Shown: in pieces, positions 35,377 to 50,919 of the stretch
How positions within the stretch are numbered: position 1 is the stretch's first letter
How the letters are laid out: every line of letters begins with the position of its first letter
Assembly: GCA_963832745.1 (NCBI GenBank)
Contig: CAWHVC010000001.1
Span: 192,001-256,000, forward strand
From: Candidatus Bathyarchaeota archaeon
GTDB lineage: Archaea; Thermoproteota; Bathyarchaeia; Bathyarchaeales; Bathycorpusculaceae
DNA: 64,000 nucleotides
Direction: 5' to 3'
Position numbers and translations under genes: made by a program
The notes under the pieces: generated by a model
Database searches by the model: none
Seen by the model: the letters and a program-made list of their open reading frames with translations, nothing else
Told to the model about the DNA's origin: nothing

Positions 35377-35865
35377 TCAGGCTACTTGCTTGATTGCCCC
35401 GGCTTTTTGCAACATAATCCGCATAGTTACGCCAGCTACAACAAAAAAGACACCTACAATGATTAGAGCAAGACCGACAATACTTGGTATGCTGGGATAT
35501 GTTAAGGAATATTCTATTGTTTGTCCGTTTGTTGAGCTTAAATTGTTTATGATGACTGCGTATGAGCCAAAGGTTTGGGCGTTAAAGGAGAATTCTACAT
35601 TACTGTAAACTGTTCCACCATTGTAAATGACTTCATTTTGTGGATTTTCTACGTAAACGTTAATGCCTTCGTTTCCGTTAAGAACTGTTACTGCACCTTG
35701 AACTTTATCGCCTGCGCTCAACTCAAGTGGAACGGATAATCCGTCAGAAATGGGCAAGGTTACAGTGTGAGTTTGAGTGGTTGAAACCGTGTATGCAGCA
35801 ATCCCTGAAACCAAAATAGCGAGTCCGATGATTGTCAAGATTAAGCCTAATGTTCTTTTTTGCAT
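35377..35865 (-). CDS. Membrane protein with extracellular beta-sandwich (GOLD-like) domain
   Basis: N- and C-terminal TM helices flanking a beta-rich domain (FSFNA..FGSY). Confidence 0.65.
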   Translation of the reverse strand: MQKRTLGLILTIIGLAILVSGIAAYTVSTTQTHTVTLPISDGLSVPLELSAGDKVQGAVTVLNGNEGINVYVENPQNEVIYNGGTVYSNVEFSFNAQTFGSYAVIINNLSSTNGQTIEYSLTYPSIPSIVGLALIIVGVFFVVAGVTMRIMLQKAGAIKQVA

Positions 35866-40372: not shown

Positions 40373-40394
40373 GGGGATGATGTCGCCGTCCCAG
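40373..40394 (+). repeat. attL core
   Basis: GGGGATGATGTCGCCGTCCCAG, identical to 45273-45294. Confidence 0.92.
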
Positions 40395-40442
40395 CCTTAG
40401 GGCAAAGTAAATTTTATCGATGTTATATGATGTTGTTGAGGT

Positions 40443-40790
40443 CTAGTTATAAGCTTTAGGGGGAATTCTTTCTTTTTCCAATTTGCCAACGAAATATTTC
40501 TCTAAATCATAAATAAACTCGTTAGCATAAGCCATCCAAACATGATGCACGCCTTGGTAAGCTCCGCAATTAGGACAAATATTTCCAAAGTTATGGTCTT
40601 CAAAGACAGTTTCAACGGGTGCAAGATTGCCTCTATATTCTGAATTGTAAACATCTTCAGTCATTGGATATGTTACTTGCATTTTTCCATTGCATTTATA
40701 GCAAGACCAAGGAAATCTATAAACTGAAATTTTCATATTAGTGAGCACCTTTGAAGTAATCTGTTGGTTATTCAATAAATGCTTAATCAT
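40443..40790 (-). CDS. Zinc-finger protein (element cargo)
   Basis: CYKC and CPNCG pairs; start probably at internal MKISV. Confidence 0.65.
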   Translation of the reverse strand: MIKHLLNNQQITSKVLTNMKISVYRFPWSCYKCNGKMQVTYPMTEDVYNSEYRGNLAPVETVFEDHNFGNICPNCGAYQGVHHVWMAYANEFIYDLEKYFVGKLEKERIPPKAYN

Positions 40791-40899
40791 TAATTAGAGC
40801 TGATAATGGAGTACCCAGAAAATAAGCTTAGAATATTCAGTTGGCGGCAACCCTTGTGGTTGCTCGCTTCCAACAAATCCTTCTAAATACTAAGCGAAC

Positions 40900-41538
40900 C
40901 TATTTTCCGCCAACGTCTTCTCGAAAAGCATCCTCAAGAAATGAGTCAACCCTTTTTATGTTAGCAGTTATCTGACTTGTCTGTTCCTTAAAATCAGCAA
41001 ACAATTCAGGATATTTTTTAACGATTTCTATAAGTGTCTTTATCTGCTCCATGCTCGTTTCCTTTAGCAATAGGAAACCAAAAATGGCTGAAACATCAGT
41101 TTTATCAATTTTGCCTTTAGCAAGAATTGCCTGATAACCCATTTTAAACGGTTCATATCCAAGTATTGATGACATTTCAACAACACATTGAAGTTGCCTA
41201 TTTTCTGGATAGATTTCAAGTATTCTGTTTGAGAGGACTTTTTGATTGGCTTCTTCAGCAAGGGCAATATAAACTCCTGCGGTTGTCAGCCAAAAAAGTT
41301 GGTGGTCTCTGCCACGATATTCTTCTAATTTTATTTCGGTTATGATGCCTTTTTCTTGCATTGAATCGAAAGCGTTCCAAACTGACTTGTAATGTCCGTT
41401 AATAATTTTATTTAAGCTGTATTTTGACTTAGGAGGGTTTTCTGCTAAGCATAGGAGTATGCGTTTTTGTAACGGCGGAAGGAACTGGCTTTCGGTAATA
41501 GCTTTTGATATATGTTCTTCCCCTTGTGGTTGAGCCAT
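40900..41538 (-). CDS. Winged-helix regulator of the element, divergent from rep
   Basis: L...QKRIL..L......YSL......YKSV..AF..M..KGII.......FWLT..G. Confidence 0.7.
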   Translation of the reverse strand: MAQPQGEEHISKAITESQFLPPLQKRILLCLAENPPKSKYSLNKIINGHYKSVWNAFDSMQEKGIITEIKLEEYRGRDHQLFWLTTAGVYIALAEEANQKVLSNRILEIYPENRQLQCVVEMSSILGYEPFKMGYQAILAKGKIDKTDVSAIFGFLLLKETSMEQIKTLIEIVKKYPELFADFKEQTSQITANIKRVDSFLEDAFREDVGGK

Positions 41539-41611
41539 AGTATGTACTCCGATTTTAACTATGTCATACGGTGCCTATATTAAATTTTGCCAATTTATGC
41601 CTCGATGAAAT

Positions 41612-42613
41612 ATGATTAACATTCAATCAACAGAAAAAAACGCAGTATCACTACATCGAGAAATCAAGAACGAGTTTTGGAGTTACGGCGATTATGTATT
41701 AGTGGGGCATGGAAAGCAAACAAACTCCGATTGTGGAAAATTCGATAAATTCATGGGGTGCCTAAATTATAAGGCACATAATCAAACACGTTTCTTCAAT
41801 GAAACCCTAGACAAAGACTCCGTTTTTGTTAAGCCAATTTATCATTCCTGCGACAAACCAACGTGTCCTGTGTGTTTTAAGTATGGATGGGCTGTAAGAG
41901 AAGCTTACCGAATGGAAGAACGTCTAAAAATAGCGTCTAACCGTTTTGGACTTCCAGTTGAGCACATTGTAGCAAGCATTAGAAGCGAAGATTATGGACT
42001 AAGCCTTGACGCATTACGGAAAAAAGCCATAAAACTAATGTCAAATCGCGGAATTATTGGCGGTTCTATAATTTTTCACGGTTTCCGATATGCCAACCGA
42101 AAAGAAGCAAGGATAAAAAGTGTTCCTTTTGGGTGGCGATGGAGTCCACATTTTCACGTTCTTGGCTTTGTTGGTGGGGAAGGTTATGGTAAATGCCGAA
42201 AATGTAAAGGCGGTGACTGTTATGCTTGCAAAGGCTTTGAAGGCGCAACAAGGCGCGAAAACAAAAAAGACGGCTGGCTCGTCAAAGTCCTAGACAAACG
42301 CAAAACTGTAGGCGGAACATGCTGGTATCAGCTAAATCATTGCTCGATTCAAAGAGGCTCAAAAAAATCTCATGCAACAACATGGTTTGGCGCTTGCTCA
42401 TATCGCAAACTCGAAATAATCAACGGTGAAAAAGGCGTTGGAATACAGCATAAATGCCCCATCTGTGACTCAGAATTAGTCCATATACGCTATTTAGGAC
42501 AAGAAAAGTTCTTGCTTACTCGGCGTGGCGAAATCCGATGTATGTTTGCTGAGGATGGAACACCTCTCTGGGAAATAGCGCATGAAGGTGAATGTCATGG
42601 AGGCTGTGGATAA
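41612..42613 (+). CDS. rep: Rolling-circle replication initiator (HUH endonuclease)
   Basis: Zn motif HSCDKPTCPVC, motif I HIVAS, HUH PHFHVLG, motif III YQLNH, WFG, C-terminal CPIC. Confidence 0.85.
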   Translation: MINIQSTEKNAVSLHREIKNEFWSYGDYVLVGHGKQTNSDCGKFDKFMGCLNYKAHNQTRFFNETLDKDSVFVKPIYHSCDKPTCPVCFKYGWAVREAYRMEERLKIASNRFGLPVEHIVASIRSEDYGLSLDALRKKAIKLMSNRGIIGGSIIFHGFRYANRKEARIKSVPFGWRWSPHFHVLGFVGGEGYGKCRKCKGGDCYACKGFEGATRRENKKDGWLVKVLDKRKTVGGTCWYQLNHCSIQRGSKKSHATTWFGACSYRKLEIINGEKGVGIQHKCPICDSELVHIRYLGQEKFLLTRRGEIRCMFAEDGTPLWEIAHEGECHGGCG

Positions 42614-42924
42614 TGATTCGCCAGCAAAGAAGACGTTTAGAGCGCCAATGGAGCAAGATAAAGGTGGGCGAAATATGTACAGACTTCATTGAAAAAAACA
42701 ACCTTTTCACACCTCCTCACATTCTTTCCTTCCAAGCGGTGAAATTATCTGAGTATTTAGTTGGCGTGTATAATGTTGGGCTCTTTAATTTCAAGAAAGA
42801 CAAAGGGCATGGAGAATTCTTCACGACCTGCATGTTTGTTGAAGGTTGCTTAAGAAATCTGCACTCTGAACGGTTGGGTTTCATTCAAGAGTTTGATTTG
42901 TGGGAGGTGGACGAAATCGATTGA
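42592..42924 (+). CDS. Hypothetical protein downstream of rep
   Basis: ORF overlapping the rep stop; start probably at internal MIRQQ. Confidence 0.45.
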   Translation: MSWRLWIMIRQQRRRLERQWSKIKVGEICTDFIEKNNLFTPPHILSFQAVKLSEYLVGVYNVGLFNFKKDKGHGEFFTTCMFVEGCLRNLHSERLGFIQEFDLWEVDEID

Positions 42925-43006
42925 TGCTTTGGCGCATCGTTTGGCTACTTGCGGAAAGTTCGGCAAGCGATAAGCGGAGCGCACCGCGCAAGCGGGCGCG
43001 AACTTT
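42923..43006. other. GC-rich inverted-repeat cluster, candidate rolling-circle origin (dso/sso)
   Basis: AAAGTTCG (42955-62)/CGAACTTT (42999-43006); CTTGC/GCAAG; GCGC-a-CCGC-GCAA-GCGG-GCGC hairpin. Confidence 0.55.
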
Positions 43007-43027
43007 AGTAAAAAAATTGGTTATCTC

Positions 43028-43850
43028 TTAATCAATTGATTTAGTCAACTTCTTCTTTTCCATCTTTTTTGTGATATAATCAGTTATACCTTCAACTAAA
43101 TCATTAACAAATATTCTTTCATCATCTGAAACACTTGTTCCAAAATGCTCACCGAAGTTAGGATAGTATGTTATATGTTATTTTAAGAAGGTCAACTATA
43201 CTGATTAATTATCAGTTCTCATCAGTGCTATCATCAATGAGAAATTTGAATGTGTTTTTTCAACATCTATTGCTTTACTTTTAGTGGACCCAAGAAATTT
43301 CTATCTATGTTGTAGCCCTTTTTCTGAACTAAGCTTAATTGCAGAATTATTGTTAATGATTTTTGCGCTTAACCGTCAGTAATCAAACATAGATTTCATA
43401 AATGTCAGAGTCAATCCAGCAATCAATTCATTGCAGCAACTTAAACTTTGAAGACCATATCAGAAAGAATGCTTTAAATTATATTGCTCCACTTGCCTAA
43501 GGCAATTATTACTCACGCAAATTTTTTTTCGATTATTTCTTATCAATCTTGTTTCATATGGAAATGGCGATTTTTGGCCCAGTTTGTGTTAATTCCAAAT
43601 ATCCAAGTGAATTCCCATGCAATTCTATAAAATATTACCGTCAGTAATGACATGTAGGGTAAAATCAAGGTTGTACATTCAAAAAATAGCCTTTTCCATT
43701 ATAATTATTTGAAACGTGATCCAAGGTGCGAATGATGCCTCCAATTCAAAAAATTATTCACGGTTCATTTGCGACTTCAAGTTATCCTTCCCAATTAAAA
43801 GAGACTTGAAAGATAGACGAGTAATTTAGTAGCCAGGCGTAATCATGAGT
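43028..43850 (-). pseudogene. Decayed cargo gene
   Basis: AT-rich with short protein-like fragments broken by stops, ending ...PNFGEHFGTSVSDDERIFVNDLVEGITDYITKKMEKKKLTKSID*; boundaries approximate. Confidence 0.45.
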
Positions 43851-44328
43851 AGGCGATATTTTTTTGCTATTTGGTCAAGTTTCGACAACAAGAACTTTTA
43901 AATTTAATCGTTAAAATAATAAATTTAAGCTAGGAGATCTGAACTTACCCGTAGGTTCTATTTCTTTAAGAGGGATAGGTTTGAATTGGTTGAAAAGCTA
44001 TCGGCATTACCTTTAGTCAATTAACGTTGATTCTATCAAATTTTTAATATATCTGTGGTATCAGAGAATATGACGGACATAGAGGCAGTGAAGACAGCTA
44101 AAGTGTAGTAGTGACTGAGGGTGAGAGACTGAGTGACTGACAGACAGAGGGTGACATGACATTATTAACGGGGATTTTGCGCATATATTACGTCATGGTT
44201 AGTAGAGAAAATCAAGAATTTGCGGGCTTTTTTAAAATACCATAACAGTAAAATTGATTTTGTTGATTGCTTCTTGAATTCGCCATCTAAAGCAGGATAT
44301 AGCATCACCAACGGGTATGGCATCTTGC

Positions 44329-45213
44329 TTAATTGCTTGTTGTACTTGTTTCGTCTGTTGTGCATTTTAGTGGTATCCACTGGATTTCTTGGTCTTCAGT
44401 AATGTATTTTTCAGTGCTTCTTGCGTCTTTGTGTCCAAGTATTTTTTTAACTTGCAAAAAGTTGTGTCCTGATAGTTTGTATTCTCTTGTGCCTTTTCGT
44501 CTGCGGAAATCATAGAGTTGCACTTGTTTTAGTTCGGGCATGTTGTATTTTTCTGCAAGGTTGTTTCTTGCATGTCTGTAACATGTGCTTAAGGTGTCTG
44601 AGGATGTTGGAAAAATTATGCTTTGAGCGTTTAGGTTTTCACGTTTGATATACCTTTTTAGCAGTTCTAAGGTGTCCTGCTTTAGTTTTCCTTCTCTTCC
44701 GATTGTATGTTTTGCGCCTGTAAGGTCAGTTCTTCCTGTTACTAAATCAATGTCTTGAACCTTTAGCCATGTTAATTCGATAGGGCGTTCCCCTAAATCT
44801 CGAGACATCTTTAATTTAAGGTTCAAAGGAAATTTAACGTGATTTATAATAAATTGCACTAATTCCTCTTTTGGTGCCCTACGCTTCTTATCTTGGCGCT
44901 GATAAAAGGGCTTATTCCATGATAACCCTAAAGATTGAATCGCTATATTATAGGATTCTATCAGGTTTTCCTTTCTGGCGTTAGATACATTCTTGTTTGC
45001 TATGTATAGTTTGACTTCTTGAGGGTTGCTTGTGTTGCAGTTTTTCTGTAAATGTTTAAGTTCCTTTACTACTCTTTTGATGGTTGTTGGTTCATAGGCT
45101 TCTTTTTTCATCCAAATAATAACGTTAGCTAAGTTAAGGTTTCCAATATCTTTAGGGTCTTGGGTTTCCTGTTGAAGTTGTTTTAAGAGCTCTTTTACGA
45201 GTTTAGGGTTCAT
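44329..45213 (-). CDS. int: Tyrosine recombinase/integrase
   Basis: Catalytic set: LGERPIE (R), GAKH (K), YDFRR, LGHKD, TEKY (Y); starts about 60 bp inside attR. Confidence 0.92.
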   Translation of the reverse strand: MNPKLVKELLKQLQQETQDPKDIGNLNLANVIIWMKKEAYEPTTIKRVVKELKHLQKNCNTSNPQEVKLYIANKNVSNARKENLIESYNIAIQSLGLSWNKPFYQRQDKKRRAPKEELVQFIINHVKFPLNLKLKMSRDLGERPIELTWLKVQDIDLVTGRTDLTGAKHTIGREGKLKQDTLELLKRYIKRENLNAQSIIFPTSSDTLSTCYRHARNNLAEKYNMPELKQVQLYDFRRRKGTREYKLSGHNFLQVKKILGHKDARSTEKYITEDQEIQWIPLKCTTDETSTTSN

Positions 45214-45269
45214 TCATTTTCATCTTTCCTTTACCAAAACCCTAAGATACTGGGACGATGTTTCAATCG

Positions 45270-45337
45270 TTGGGGGATGATGTCGCCGTCCCAGTCGGAT
45301 TGCGAAAGATGACGAGCTTATGACGGACAGACCCCAA
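45270..45337 (+). ncRNA. Box C/D 2'-O-methylation guide sRNA (contains attR core)
   Basis: Stem TTGGGG/CCCCAA; C ATGATGT 45277-83; 12-nt guide; D' CGGA 45296-99; C' ATGACGA 45309-15; 12-nt guide; D CAGA 45328-31; box deviations are compensatory. Confidence 0.85.
45273..45294 (+). repeat. attR core
   Basis: Identical to 40373-40394. Confidence 0.92.
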
Positions 45338-45616
45338 GCGTCAACATCAAAATTTTTAAAATTTTAAAATAGTGTTCCTGCACCGAAAATGTAAGAAATC
45401 ACAATGGTTACGCAGAGGGAAATGCAGAGGAAAGGGCAGGCTTTTCTGGAAAAAAACGCTGTGTAATAAACCTCAAACTCACGTTTTAAATGGCGTAGGC
45501 ATATGTGGGCGAGCCTATATTCCATTAAAGCCTCCTCCTTCTCCTCAAGAAAAGTTGGGCTTTTAGAGTTTATAAAGGGTATTTCAAACGTGGAATACCC
45601 TAATGGAGAGAAGAGG

Positions 45617-47577: not shown

Positions 47578-50500
47578 TTGTTGAGTTCTTCTAGGGAAAT
47601 CCGAGTATTACATGTGGACGACGAGAAAGCATTCTTAGACCTTGCAAAAACCATCCTCTCCGACGAAGGCCCATTCAATATTGAAACAGCAACCTCGGTA
47701 GACACAGCCTTCACCAAGCTCCAAAACAACAACTTTGACATCATCATCTCTGATTATGACATGCCCCAAAAAAACGGGTTAGACTTTTTAAAACTACTAC
47801 GAGAAAAAGGCTACGCAACACCGTTTATCCTGTTCACCGGCAAAGGTCGAGAGGAAATTGTTGTTCAAGCCCTAAACATGGGTGTTGACCGCTACATAAG
47901 CAAACATGGTGAACCCAAAACCGTCTATACCGAACTATCTGTTTGCATCCGCCAGTTGCACGAAAAAATTATGGCTCAAAAACTGCTTTGGGAAAGCGAA
48001 GAACGCTTCAAACAAATGGTAACAAACAGTAAAGACCTGATAATGCTCACAGGAGCAAACGGCGTAATAATTTATTTGAGCCCTTCATGCAAGGACATTT
48101 TAGGTTACGAACCTATCGAATTAATCGGGAAAATCCCATGGATCACCCACCCTGACGATTTAGAGCGGGTTCAAAAGATATTCCAGTTAGCATTAACAAC
48201 CCAATTAAACGATTCAGCTGAATACCGCATAGTAACCAAACGTGGAGAAACCAAATGGGTCAACCATTCCTTCTCACAAATCATAGAAAATGGCAAGATA
48301 AAACAGATAGTCAGCACAGTAAAAGACATCACAGAAGCCAAAATTGCCCAAGCTAAGCTTATAGAAAGCGAGGAACGTTTCCGTTTAGTTGTTGAAAACT
48401 CACCGATTATGATGGCAAACCTAAACAGGAATTTGCAGTATACGTGGATTCATAACCCTTTGATAAACCCTTTATCTTCAGAGAATGTTTTGGGCAAGCA
48501 CTTCGGCGAAGCAGTAGATATGGATGATTGCGAGGAAATCCGGGAAGCCCTGCATGAATTAATAGTTACGGGGGGTTCAATAAGACGAGAAGCCACAATT
48601 CACATTAACAAGGAAACCTGTTTTCTTGAATGCTACTTTGAAGCTGCCAAGAACCAAAAAGGCGAAGTCACAGGAATACGGTACACGGCATATGATGTAA
48701 CACAAAGGAGACAAATGGCTGCTCAACTGAAATCTTTGGAGGAACGCTGGAATTTCGCTTTAGAAGGCGCTGGTCAGGGAGTTTGGGACTTTAATGTTCA
48801 AACAAACAGTGTGTTCTTATCTCGAAAATGGAAAAAAATCCTTGACTATGAAGAACATGAATTCACGAATGATTTTAAAGAATGGCAAAATCGGTTACAT
48901 CCCGAGGATAAAGAAAGCGCAATTGAAGATATAATGAATTATTGCGCTGGAAAAACGTCTTCGTACGTTAAAGAGTACCGTTTACTCGCAAAAGATGGCA
49001 CTTATAAATGGATTTTTTCTCAAGGGAACATAATGGCCCGAACCACTAACGGCAAGCCTTCCCGTGTGATTGGAACCATAATGGATATAACCAAACATAA
49101 ACAATCAGAAAACGCTATAAAAGAATCTGAAGCAAAATTTTCTGCCGCTTTCAACTCAAGCGGTGCAGCAATGACTATAACACGACTTGAAGATGGACTA
49201 ATTTTGGAAGTGAATGATTGCTTCCTCGAGACTTTTGGCTACACACGTGAAGAAGTTATAGGAAAAACTGCACAGATGCTTCATTTATATGCTGACATGA
49301 ATGAACGCCAAAAAATAGTTGAACTAACCTTAAAGAGCAATTCAGTAGTTAACCGTGAAGTTAAAGGATTAAAGAAAGATAAAACCGAAGTTACCGCGCT
49401 TTTCTCAACAAAAATGGTTTACCTTAAAGGTCAAAAGAACCTCGTAACAACGCTAATTGATATTTCAAGCCTTAAAAAAATCGAAAACTCTCTTTACCTC
49501 AGACAGAAAGAATTAGAAAACTTAATTGCAATGGCACCAGACTCAGTAACCGTTATTGATTTAGAAGGAAAAATAATTGAATGCAATGAACTTTCTTGTA
49601 AAACCTTCGGTTACACACGAGAGGAGATGATTGGGTCGTATGGAGCCAATTTCGTCGTAGAAAGAGATCGTAATACATTGGAAAATGAGATGAGAAACGC
49701 GGTTTGTGACAAGCAGGTGCATACAAGCATTTTTACAGGCAAATGCAGGAACGGTAACGAAATCGCCGTGGAAGGCTCAGTTAAAGCAACTTTTGATAAT
49801 AATGGAAGCCCTACAGGTTTTATCGCAATAATCAGAGACATTACTGAACGAAATCTTGCAGAACGGAAATTGCAAGAGAGCGAAGAAAGATACCGGTTTA
49901 TGGCTGAACATGCTCAGGACATTATCACAGTTACAGATGTAAGAGGGAATTTTCTTTTTGTTTCGCCATCAATTAAGCGCTTGGCAGGTTTTACACCTGA
50001 TGAGCTTAAAGGCAAAAAAGGTATGCTAACATGCATTCACGTTGATGATTTGCCTCTTCTCACTTCAAAAATCCAGGAAGCCATGACAAATAATGTTGCA
50101 CAAGTTGAGGTTCGATTCTTAACTAAATGCGGTAGCTTCATTTGGCTTGAGACGAACATAAGTACAGTCAAGGATACGGCTGGTGAAACCAGATTTATCA
50201 GCATAAGCCGAGACATGACTCAACGTAGAATTGACCGTGAAGAAAGAGACCAAGCCCTTGCCAAAGCAGAGTTGCTCCTTGAAAAGTTAAGTGTTGTAGG
50301 CGGGTTTGTCAGGCATGATGTGAGAAACAAGCTTGCAGCAATCACAAGCACGTTATATTTAAGCAAAAAATACGCCAACGATAATCAAAACATGCTAAAA
50401 CAGGTAGAGCAAATTGGATATGCTGCGGACAACATTGAACATATTCTGGAGTTTGCTCAAACTTACGAGGCAGTGGGAAGCAGAGGGTTATCATGGTGTG

Positions 50501-50919
50501 CAATCAATAGAGCAATTGAAGAAGCAAAAAATCTAAGCCCCGACTTAAACAACATACAGATAGAAACTGAAAATGTAAACTTTGAAGCCTTAGCTGACTC
50601 TGCCTTAACTGAAATATTCCATAATCTCATCGACAACTCCATCAAGTACGGTAAAAACTTGACCTTAATCCGAATTTTCAGTCAAAAAAATGATAAAGGC
50701 AATATAGACCTAATTTATGAAGACAATGGAGTCGGAATTGACCCCCAAATTAAGCCTCGCCTTTTTCAGAAAGGAGCGGGAAAAGGAACTGGTTTGGGCG
50801 TTTACTTGATTCAACAAATCTGCTACATTTATGGCTGGCGAGTTTTCGAAAATGGTGAACAAGGGAAAGGCGTACGTTTTATAATTGAAATTCCTCAAGA
50901 ACGAACACGCAAACTATAA
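47578..50919 (+). CDS. REC-multiPAS hybrid sensor histidine kinase
   Basis: LHVDDE/SDYDMP receiver; about 6 PAS/PAC repeats; RHDVRN H-box; NLIDNS, DNGVG, GTGLG. Confidence 0.95.
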   Translation: MLSSSREIRVLHVDDEKAFLDLAKTILSDEGPFNIETATSVDTAFTKLQNNNFDIIISDYDMPQKNGLDFLKLLREKGYATPFILFTGKGREEIVVQALNMGVDRYISKHGEPKTVYTELSVCIRQLHEKIMAQKLLWESEERFKQMVTNSKDLIMLTGANGVIIYLSPSCKDILGYEPIELIGKIPWITHPDDLERVQKIFQLALTTQLNDSAEYRIVTKRGETKWVNHSFSQIIENGKIKQIVSTVKDITEAKIAQAKLIESEERFRLVVENSPIMMANLNRNLQYTWIHNPLINPLSSENVLGKHFGEAVDMDDCEEIREALHELIVTGGSIRREATIHINKETCFLECYFEAAKNQKGEVTGIRYTAYDVTQRRQMAAQLKSLEERWNFALEGAGQGVWDFNVQTNSVFLSRKWKKILDYEEHEFTNDFKEWQNRLHPEDKESAIEDIMNYCAGKTSSYVKEYRLLAKDGTYKWIFSQGNIMARTTNGKPSRVIGTIMDITKHKQSENAIKESEAKFSAAFNSSGAAMTITRLEDGLILEVNDCFLETFGYTREEVIGKTAQMLHLYADMNERQKIVELTLKSNSVVNREVKGLKKDKTEVTALFSTKMVYLKGQKNLVTTLIDISSLKKIENSLYLRQKELENLIAMAPDSVTVIDLEGKIIECNELSCKTFGYTREEMIGSYGANFVVERDRNTLENEMRNAVCDKQVHTSIFTGKCRNGNEIAVEGSVKATFDNNGSPTGFIAIIRDITERNLAERKLQESEERYRFMAEHAQDIITVTDVRGNFLFVSPSIKRLAGFTPDELKGKKGMLTCIHVDDLPLLTSKIQEAMTNNVAQVEVRFLTKCGSFIWLETNISTVKDTAGETRFISISRDMTQRRIDREERDQALAKAELLLEKLSVVGGFVRHDVRNKLAAITSTLYLSKKYANDNQNMLKQVEQIGYAADNIEHILEFAQTYEAVGSRGLSWCAINRAIEEAKNLSPDLNNIQIETENVNFEALADSALTEIFHNLIDNSIKYGKNLTLIRIFSQKNDKGNIDLIYEDNGVGIDPQIKPRLFQKGAGKGTGLGVYLIQQICYIYGWRVFENGEQGKGVRFIIEIPQERTRKL

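Follow-up and report, generated by a model that had tools for sequence, protein, structure and literature searches.

The window analysed here, a stretch of 64,000 nucleotides from the genome of a member of the Bathyarchaeia, carries on its plus strand, at positions 45271–45337, all the elements expected of a box C/D sRNA from an archaeon, namely four boxes, two guides and a terminal stem. The gene is intergenic and lies between the start of a minus-strand ORF of 294 aa (44329–45213), which encodes a tyrosine integrase and is divergent from the sRNA, and a small ORF beginning at 45364. The integrase belongs to an integrated element of ~4.9 kb (40395–45272), the other ORFs of which matched neither Pfam nor PHROG families.

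Box architecture and homologues of the sRNA

Read along the plus strand from 45270 to 45337, the parts of the sRNA follow one another as UUGGGGG, AUGAUGU, CGCCGUCCCAGU, CGGA, UUGCGAAAG, AUGACGA, GCUUAUGACGGA, CAGA and CCCCAA. The terminal stem consists of UGGGG (45271–45275) and CCCCAA (45332–45337), with 45271–45275 paired to 45332–45336 in the MFE fold, and G45276, A45277 and U45278 would be the three-nucleotide bulge of a k-turn. The C box, AUGAUGU (45277–45283), agrees with RUGAUGA at six of seven positions and is followed by the D' guide (45284–45295), the D' box CGGA (45296–45299; CUGA in the majority of relatives), a D'–C' loop (45300–45308) that varies in both sequence and length among the homologues, the C' box AUGACGA (45309–45315), the D guide (45316–45327) and the D box CAGA (45328–45331), a CUGA variant that matches at three of four positions and retains the GA. 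A preliminary description of the locus had placed a box C/D sRNA with two 12-nt guides at 45277–45331; boxes, spacers and stem are all present, and the length of both spacers can be read directly from the sequence. When the naked RNA is folded, the MFE structure (−24.3 kcal/mol, z = −2.65) joins the ends by five pairs and has the two guides pairing with one another via CCGUC and GACGG.

The D and D' boxes deviate from the consensus CUGA, the D box being CAGA and the D' box CGGA. At the locus itself these deviations are compensatory, as had been proposed: the C at position 5 of the C' box pairs with the G at position 2 of the D' box, and the U at position 5 of the C box with the A at position 2 of the D box. 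Published lists of archaeal sRNAs also contain RNAs with CAGA 3' ends.

A DNA search of 41 genomes, including that of the host, matched 30 of them; the sRNA was present in 21 of the 24 same-genus genomes and in eight of the 16 that represent other families of the order. When the loci retrieved through the integrase are included, 51 full copies were available, 45 of which are distinct. The 10-nt core GCCGUCCCAG, which corresponds to positions 2–11 of the D' guide, is invariant in all 45 distinct homologues, across Bathyarchaeia. The same holds for the GGGG/CCCC stem, the pairs of which never vary and hence provide no covariation evidence. In the 3' half of the RNA, both the C' and the D box are kept in 45/45 sequences, along with the CCCC strand of the stem, and the D box is invariably CAGA, whereas the variable parts comprise the loop, the seventh base of the C box and the entire D spacer. 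Both the UGAUG core of the C box and the U at its position 5 are found in 43/45 homologues, and since the D box is CAGA, the C/D position that is usually a U–U mismatch can form a U–A pair. At the margins of the D' guide, position 1 is U or A, and position 12 can be C, A, G or U.

Compensation between the C' and D' boxes is less regular. Over the 45 sequences, the relevant pair is A–U in 24, G–C in four, G–U in three and C–G in two, and is mismatched in the remaining 12. A total of 33/45 paired cases, which 81 of 5000 shuffles also attain when relatedness is left uncontrolled, amounts family-wide only to a tendency, so that the idea of compensatory boxes stands for the locus and not for the family at large. 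The D' box CGGA is confined to the present sRNA and one other locus, each of which has the C in its C' box; at two further loci that share the D guide and the C' box C with the present sRNA, the D' box is CUGA. On the scale of the phylum, the pattern GCCGTCCCAGNCNGA was found in 86 of 401 sampled genomes, compared to ~17 for the reversed control. These genomes are concentrated in a few families (22/25, 6/6, 21/23 and 4/5 genomes, respectively), and the pattern was absent from the 13 genomes by which the remaining families of the class were sampled.

Searching the whole 3.02-Mb genome for the four-box-plus-stem pattern returned the sRNA locus as the sole clean match (one, versus none in the reversed-sequence control). 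Looser patterns gave two and four matches, versus none in the controls, the additional matches looking like products of chance. The C/D repertoire of this genome may be very small, or its other sRNAs may depart from the four-box pattern. At gathering thresholds, no Rfam family matched the window. The best of the sub-threshold scores was obtained with snR67 (19.2 bits against a gathering threshold of 55; E = 0.12), the guide for yeast Gm2619; behind it came SNORD43, sR22 and sR60, the next three scores being 17.5, 13.0 and 12.6 bits. The thresholds of this set range from 40 to 55 bits, and membership in any of these curated C/D families was rejected, each score falling below the respective gathering threshold.

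The genome encodes the protein components of a C/D RNP. Genes for fibrillarin and Nop5 are adjacent to each other (PF01269, 317 bits; PF01798, 241 bits), and two genes belong to the L7Ae family (PF01248). The ~66-nt RNA would be bound by L7Ae at the C/D k-turn and at the C'/D' k-loop, whereupon Nop5–fibrillarin dimers would assemble; we infer that the sRNA is transcribed, incorporated into such an RNP and used for methylation. As regards the rRNA genes, the 16S gene (524515–526004) and the only 23S match (643790–646560, reaching the contig end) lie ~118 kb apart on contig C5, a separation that may reflect truly unlinked rRNA genes or an assembly effect.

Guide sequences and their predicted sites in 23S rRNA

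Both guides were slid along the host's own 23S and 16S rRNAs and 40 tRNAs identified with ARAGORN. The D' guide fits best at the P-loop of the host 23S, GCUGGGGCGGCA, where guide positions 2–11 (45285–45294) are all paired, by nine Watson–Crick pairs and one internal G–U pair formed between U45289 and G2253 (E. coli numbering is used throughout for rRNA sites); at the ends of the guide, there is a G–U pair at position N+1 and a C–A mismatch at N+12. In a MAFFT alignment with E. coli rrlH, the target covers nucleotides 2247–2258, with 2248–2257 complementary to the core, and N+5 from the D' box is G2251, which is nucleotide 2151 of the extracted host 23S and lies opposite C45291. The earlier proposal of a P-loop duplex with a single internal G–U pair and with G2251 at N+5 is thus confirmed with the host's own rRNA, the P-loop of which can pair with the guide.

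Pairing alone is weak evidence for this target, because 25 of 300 shuffled D' guides equalled the observed core score somewhere in the 23S, the 16S or the 40 tRNAs. The reading is lifted above chance by the conservation of the guide core among the homologues. In structural work on archaeal C/D RNPs, a guide–target duplex of ten nucleotides has been reported, which is exactly the length of the invariant block. On the side of the target, the stretch GGCUGGGGCGGCAC is identical in 15/15 relatives in which this part of the 23S is assembled. Covariation of guide position 1 (U or A) with the target was considered and rejected, G2247 being invariant in all 15 relatives; because the target is identical throughout, position 1 does not covary with it and is unconstrained.

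Guides of this kind have been described before. Dennis et al. (2015; PMC4644070) refer to the nucleotide as G2520 in pan-archaeal numbering, equivalent to E. coli G2251, and give it as a predicted target in three of seven archaea, so that the near-universal status that the preliminary description accorded to Gm2251 is overstated for this domain. In the supplement of the same paper, the entries for the G2251 site are Mka sR13 (D' guide), Thermoproteus tenax sR7 (D guide) and Pyrobaculum calidifontis sR36 (D guide), the latter two being listed for the same nucleotide as predicted for the sRNA described here. The 10-nt guide core of P. calidifontis sR36, T. tenax sR7/sR107 and Ignicoccus hospitalis (Iho) sR410 is identical to that of the present sRNA, and the supplement entries PCAsR36, TtesR107 and IHOsR410 contain the core GCCGTCCCAG, each with its U wobbling to G2253. 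In Iho sR410, the core serves as a D' guide within a GGGG...CCCC stem, as in the sRNA from the window, whereas in the Pyrobaculum and Thermoproteus RNAs, it is the D guide and is combined with a different partner guide. The boxes also differ, being CUGA, GCGA or CCGA in the RNAs of these three organisms, as opposed to CGGA and CAGA here. The likeness is one of guide identity; in that sense, the exact guide, including the wobble pair, is common to Bathyarchaeia and distant Thermoproteota. The main text of Lui et al. (2018) contains none of the terms sR36, sR17 and G2251.

Outside the Thermoproteota, the counterparts of E. coli Gm2251 are, according to a review table (PMC11542601), yeast Gm2619, human Gm4196, Arabidopsis Gm2620 and Haloarcula marismortui Gm1950. 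By contrast, Grosjean et al. (2008; PMC2584109) assign H. marismortui G1950 to E. coli position 1909, and we favour their assignment over that of the table because it is consistent with the shift in numbering from E. coli U2552 to H. marismortui U2587. In the review table, the nucleotide modified by the eukaryotic C/D snoRNPs with P-loop guides (yeast, human and Arabidopsis) and by bacterial RlmB is G2251, as predicted for the archaeal RNA. RlmB is a protein-only enzyme, whereas the sRNA would act as a guide.

Judging from the pairing, the conservation and the published counterparts, the RNA is probably a box C/D sRNA whose D' guide directs 2'-O-methylation of G2251 in 23S rRNA, and its assignment as a Gm2251 guide is well supported at the sequence level. 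A 10-bp duplex of the guide with nucleotides 2248–2257 of the nascent 23S would allow fibrillarin to methylate G2251 in the P-loop. Given that sRNA-guided formation of Gm2251 in archaea is an established prediction, the Bathyarchaeia RNA is an additional case, one by which a known and widely shared rRNA modification at the P site would be extended to these uncultured archaea.

For the D guide, the best site anywhere is also located in the host 23S, at ACCGUCGUGAGA (nucleotides 2589–2600), with U2593, nucleotide 2497 of the extracted host 23S, at N+5. All ten core positions (2–11) are paired, by eight Watson–Crick and two G–U pairs, a score equalled by 34 of 300 shuffled guides. The spacer xCUCAUGACGGx, present in relatives that belong to several other families, requires only one G–U pair, and for this version the number of shuffled guides reaching the score is 16 of 300. 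Altogether, 15 of the 45 distinct sequences, from several families, have at least nine of the ten core positions paired at this site, and in all 15 the spacer is 12 nt long; the site itself is identical in 20/20 relatives where it is readable. A published parallel is provided by the sR17 RNAs of P. calidifontis and T. tenax, the D guides of which are predicted for U2867 (PMC4644070), a pan-archaeal position that corresponds to E. coli U2593 when counted in the alignment of that paper. These guides end in GACGGA before the D box, exactly as does the D guide from the window, and differ from the latter at two positions, one of which matches a change in the target and the other is a G–U pair in the present duplex. 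The P. calidifontis guide CCUCGCGACGGA matches the P. calidifontis target ACCGUCGCGAGA, and a target C facing a guide G in that organism is replaced in the Bathyarchaeia lineage by a target U facing a guide A. In Pyrobaculum and Thermoproteus, the sR17 RNAs are separate sRNAs, whereas here the guides for U2593 and G2251 would be combined in one molecule.

The D spacer might, however, be orphan or decaying and methylate nothing, leaving a single-guide sRNA in which only the D' guide works. This reading, which we consider possible but rather doubtful, is consistent with the remaining 30 of the 45 homologues, in which the D spacers are A/U-rich, measure 10–14 nt and have at most eight of ten positions paired with the U2593 site, as well as with the two G–U pairs that the duplex from the window requires and with the frequency of equally good shuffled guides. 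It sits less well with the preservation of xCU(C/U)AUGACGG at exactly 12 nt in the other 15 sequences, across several families, or with the prediction of U2593 as the target of the Pyrobaculum and Thermoproteus sR17, including the matching change in guide and target. Because the D guide is often lost and because shuffled guides reach its score, we rate the chances that it targets U2593 as about even. Were this the case, the guide would pair with 23S nucleotides 2590–2599 and U2593, beside helix 93, would be methylated, which would bring both predicted modifications to the ribosomal P site. Within one sRNA family (loci L009–L060), the D guide has been lost repeatedly, with the D' guide intact throughout.

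An integrase element at the 5' part of the sRNA gene

The 5' part of the sRNA gene is repeated in the window. The 22-bp sequence GGGGATGATGTCGCCGTCCCAG is found on the plus strand at 45273–45294, within the intact gene, and again, without a single difference, at 40373–40394, where the 5' part of the gene stands orphaned, preceded by a TATA-like stretch rich in A and T. These right and left att copies are 4.9 kb apart and enclose the integrase (PF00589, 1.5e-8; phrog_216, 2.9e-12). A tRNA scan of the window found none, which excludes a tRNA gene as the att site. The right flank is syntenic with relatives; for the left flank, no match turned up in the fetched loci, which hence offered no clean empty site. 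Within the element, ~1.2 kb (42925–44164) are devoid of any ORF of at least 60 aa.

Near its right end, the element carries on the plus strand the arm CCCTAAG-AUA-CTGGGACG (45241–45259), an inverted copy of CGTCCCAG-C-CTTAGGG (40387–40402), which in turn is made up of the guide and the other, left end of the element. Judged by these arms, attP would be a long imperfect palindrome with the guide as its right arm. A CTGGGACG-like motif is located at about −22 to −14, between a TATA-like box and the sRNA start, and is also found upstream of many sRNA copies without an integrase; the motif may be an arm site for the integrase or may belong to the native promoter.

The association between the integrase and the sRNA recurs across Bathyarchaeia. 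Relatives of the integrase were found at 25 loci, all in Bathyarchaeia MAGs, and at 23 of these the sRNA lies directly upstream in divergent orientation, as a full copy in 21 cases and cut by the contig end in two. Five other genomes of the genus show the same arrangement, with partial sRNA copies separated from the complete gene by a few kb, and in two of the five the left end of the element, CCTTAGGG(G)CAAAGTAA, is the same. The att junction was further detected in 71 metagenome stretches, of which 49 are apparently left ends of integrated copies and 15 do not extend far enough for a decision; in the other seven, the integrase is directly upstream, as might be expected of an attP. The junction had no match in viral_contigs, and the integrase protein had none in the phage and plasmid collections.

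In view of these numbers, it could be argued that the stretch is conserved only as an integrase att site and that the sRNA is a look-alike or a relic, the more so as the most conserved part of the RNA is the part covered by the 22-bp repeat, 23 of 25 integrase relatives adjoin it and the junction recurs in 71 metagenome stretches. Such a reading would nevertheless have to account for the CCCC strand and the C' and D boxes, which lie outside the repeat yet are kept in 45/45 homologues, for an invariant block that corresponds exactly to guide positions 2–11 and for the presence of the same guide in Pyrobaculum, Thermoproteus and Ignicoccus sRNAs listed in PMC4644070. Moreover, the full sRNA is present at eight loci in other families that lack an integrase within 1.5 kb, which argues that the sRNA is not merely a passenger of the element. 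We therefore consider it highly improbable that att-site function alone explains the conservation, and retain the view of a genuine sRNA. Part of the 5' conservation could still be due to att-site selection, given that the element supplies the 5' 22 nt in the genomes that carry it.

We lean, with some reservation, towards the view that a Bathyarchaeia-wide family of small elements has its dedicated att site in the 5' part of the sRNA gene, from the stem through the C box to the P-loop guide, unlike the att sites described for archaeal integrases. The 5' 22 bp of the gene probably serve both the RNA and the recombinase; insertions would replace the promoter along with the first 22 nt, and the element would commandeer the expression of what is perhaps the only clean C/D guide of the cell. 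In the window, one copy of the element has probably inserted in this manner, its right end rebuilding an intact gene that is now preceded by element-borne upstream DNA; in its present position behind element DNA, the sRNA gene has only a weak TATA-like box. If this view is correct, the invariance imposed on the guide by the rRNA provides the element with a non-drifting target. The suggestion, made when the locus was first described, that a guide fixed by its rRNA target would make a stable attB fits an att repeat that covers the C box and the guide and with a guide core that is the same in all homologues.

The arrangement resembles the att sites that archaeal integrases use in tRNA genes (PMC8371274), in that a short repeat lies within a gene for a small stable RNA and one end of the element rebuilds that gene. 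It differs in the kind of gene, those att sites being in tRNA genes, whereas the gene used here, through its 5' part, encodes a box C/D sRNA. The text of the same review, which is devoted to archaeal tyrosine recombinases, does not contain the term 'sRNA', and full-text literature searches returned no paper that links a box sRNA to attB, or to an integration site together with an integrase. The use of the sRNA gene as an att site is the less ordinary part of the finding. A 22-bp att site fixed by rRNA and accompanied by an integrase offers a possible handle for genetic tools, and the att site marks mobile elements in a lineage whose mobilome is little known.

Weaker candidate targets and other genes in the window

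Another RNA that the D' guide might act on, instead of or besides the 23S, is tRNA-Cys(GCA). Nucleotides 1–12 of this tRNA pair with all ten core positions of the guide, by eight Watson–Crick and two G–U pairs, and N+5 would be nucleotide 5 of the acceptor stem. The 23S match is the stronger of the two, and the guide is conserved even in distant lineages, the tRNA comparison covering the host genome. To our knowledge, guided methylation at tRNA nucleotide 5 has no precedent. We consider this target very unlikely and keep the 23S P-loop as the predicted site of the D' guide.

Least credible of all is methylation of 16S helix 34 by the D guide, as tentatively put forward in the preliminary description: the host's helix 34, GCCGUCGCCAGU (nucleotides 1058–1069), is unlike the GUCAGC presumed there and pairs at nine of 12 positions (seven Watson–Crick and two G–U pairs) with three mismatches, two of them within the duplex, whereas the 23S site at U2593 fits better, and the eight best sites for either version of the D guide include just one 16S site, with eight pairs. 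Helix 34 was accordingly rejected as the weaker candidate, as was a 16S site near nucleotides 1400–1410, which forms seven contiguous pairs with the D guide and is likewise inferior to the 23S site.

Two further genes in the window deserve mention. A minus-strand ORF of 162 aa (35377–35865) has a match to PF01105, the emp24/GP25L/GOLD family (33.5 bits, cut-off 25.9; E = 5.6e-8), a domain that is mainly eukaryotic. On the plus strand, an ORF at 47578–50919 encodes a hybrid sensor kinase of 1113 aa with a receiver, several PAS and HATPase domains, located downstream of genes for an ArsR-type regulator and a 4Fe-4S protein.
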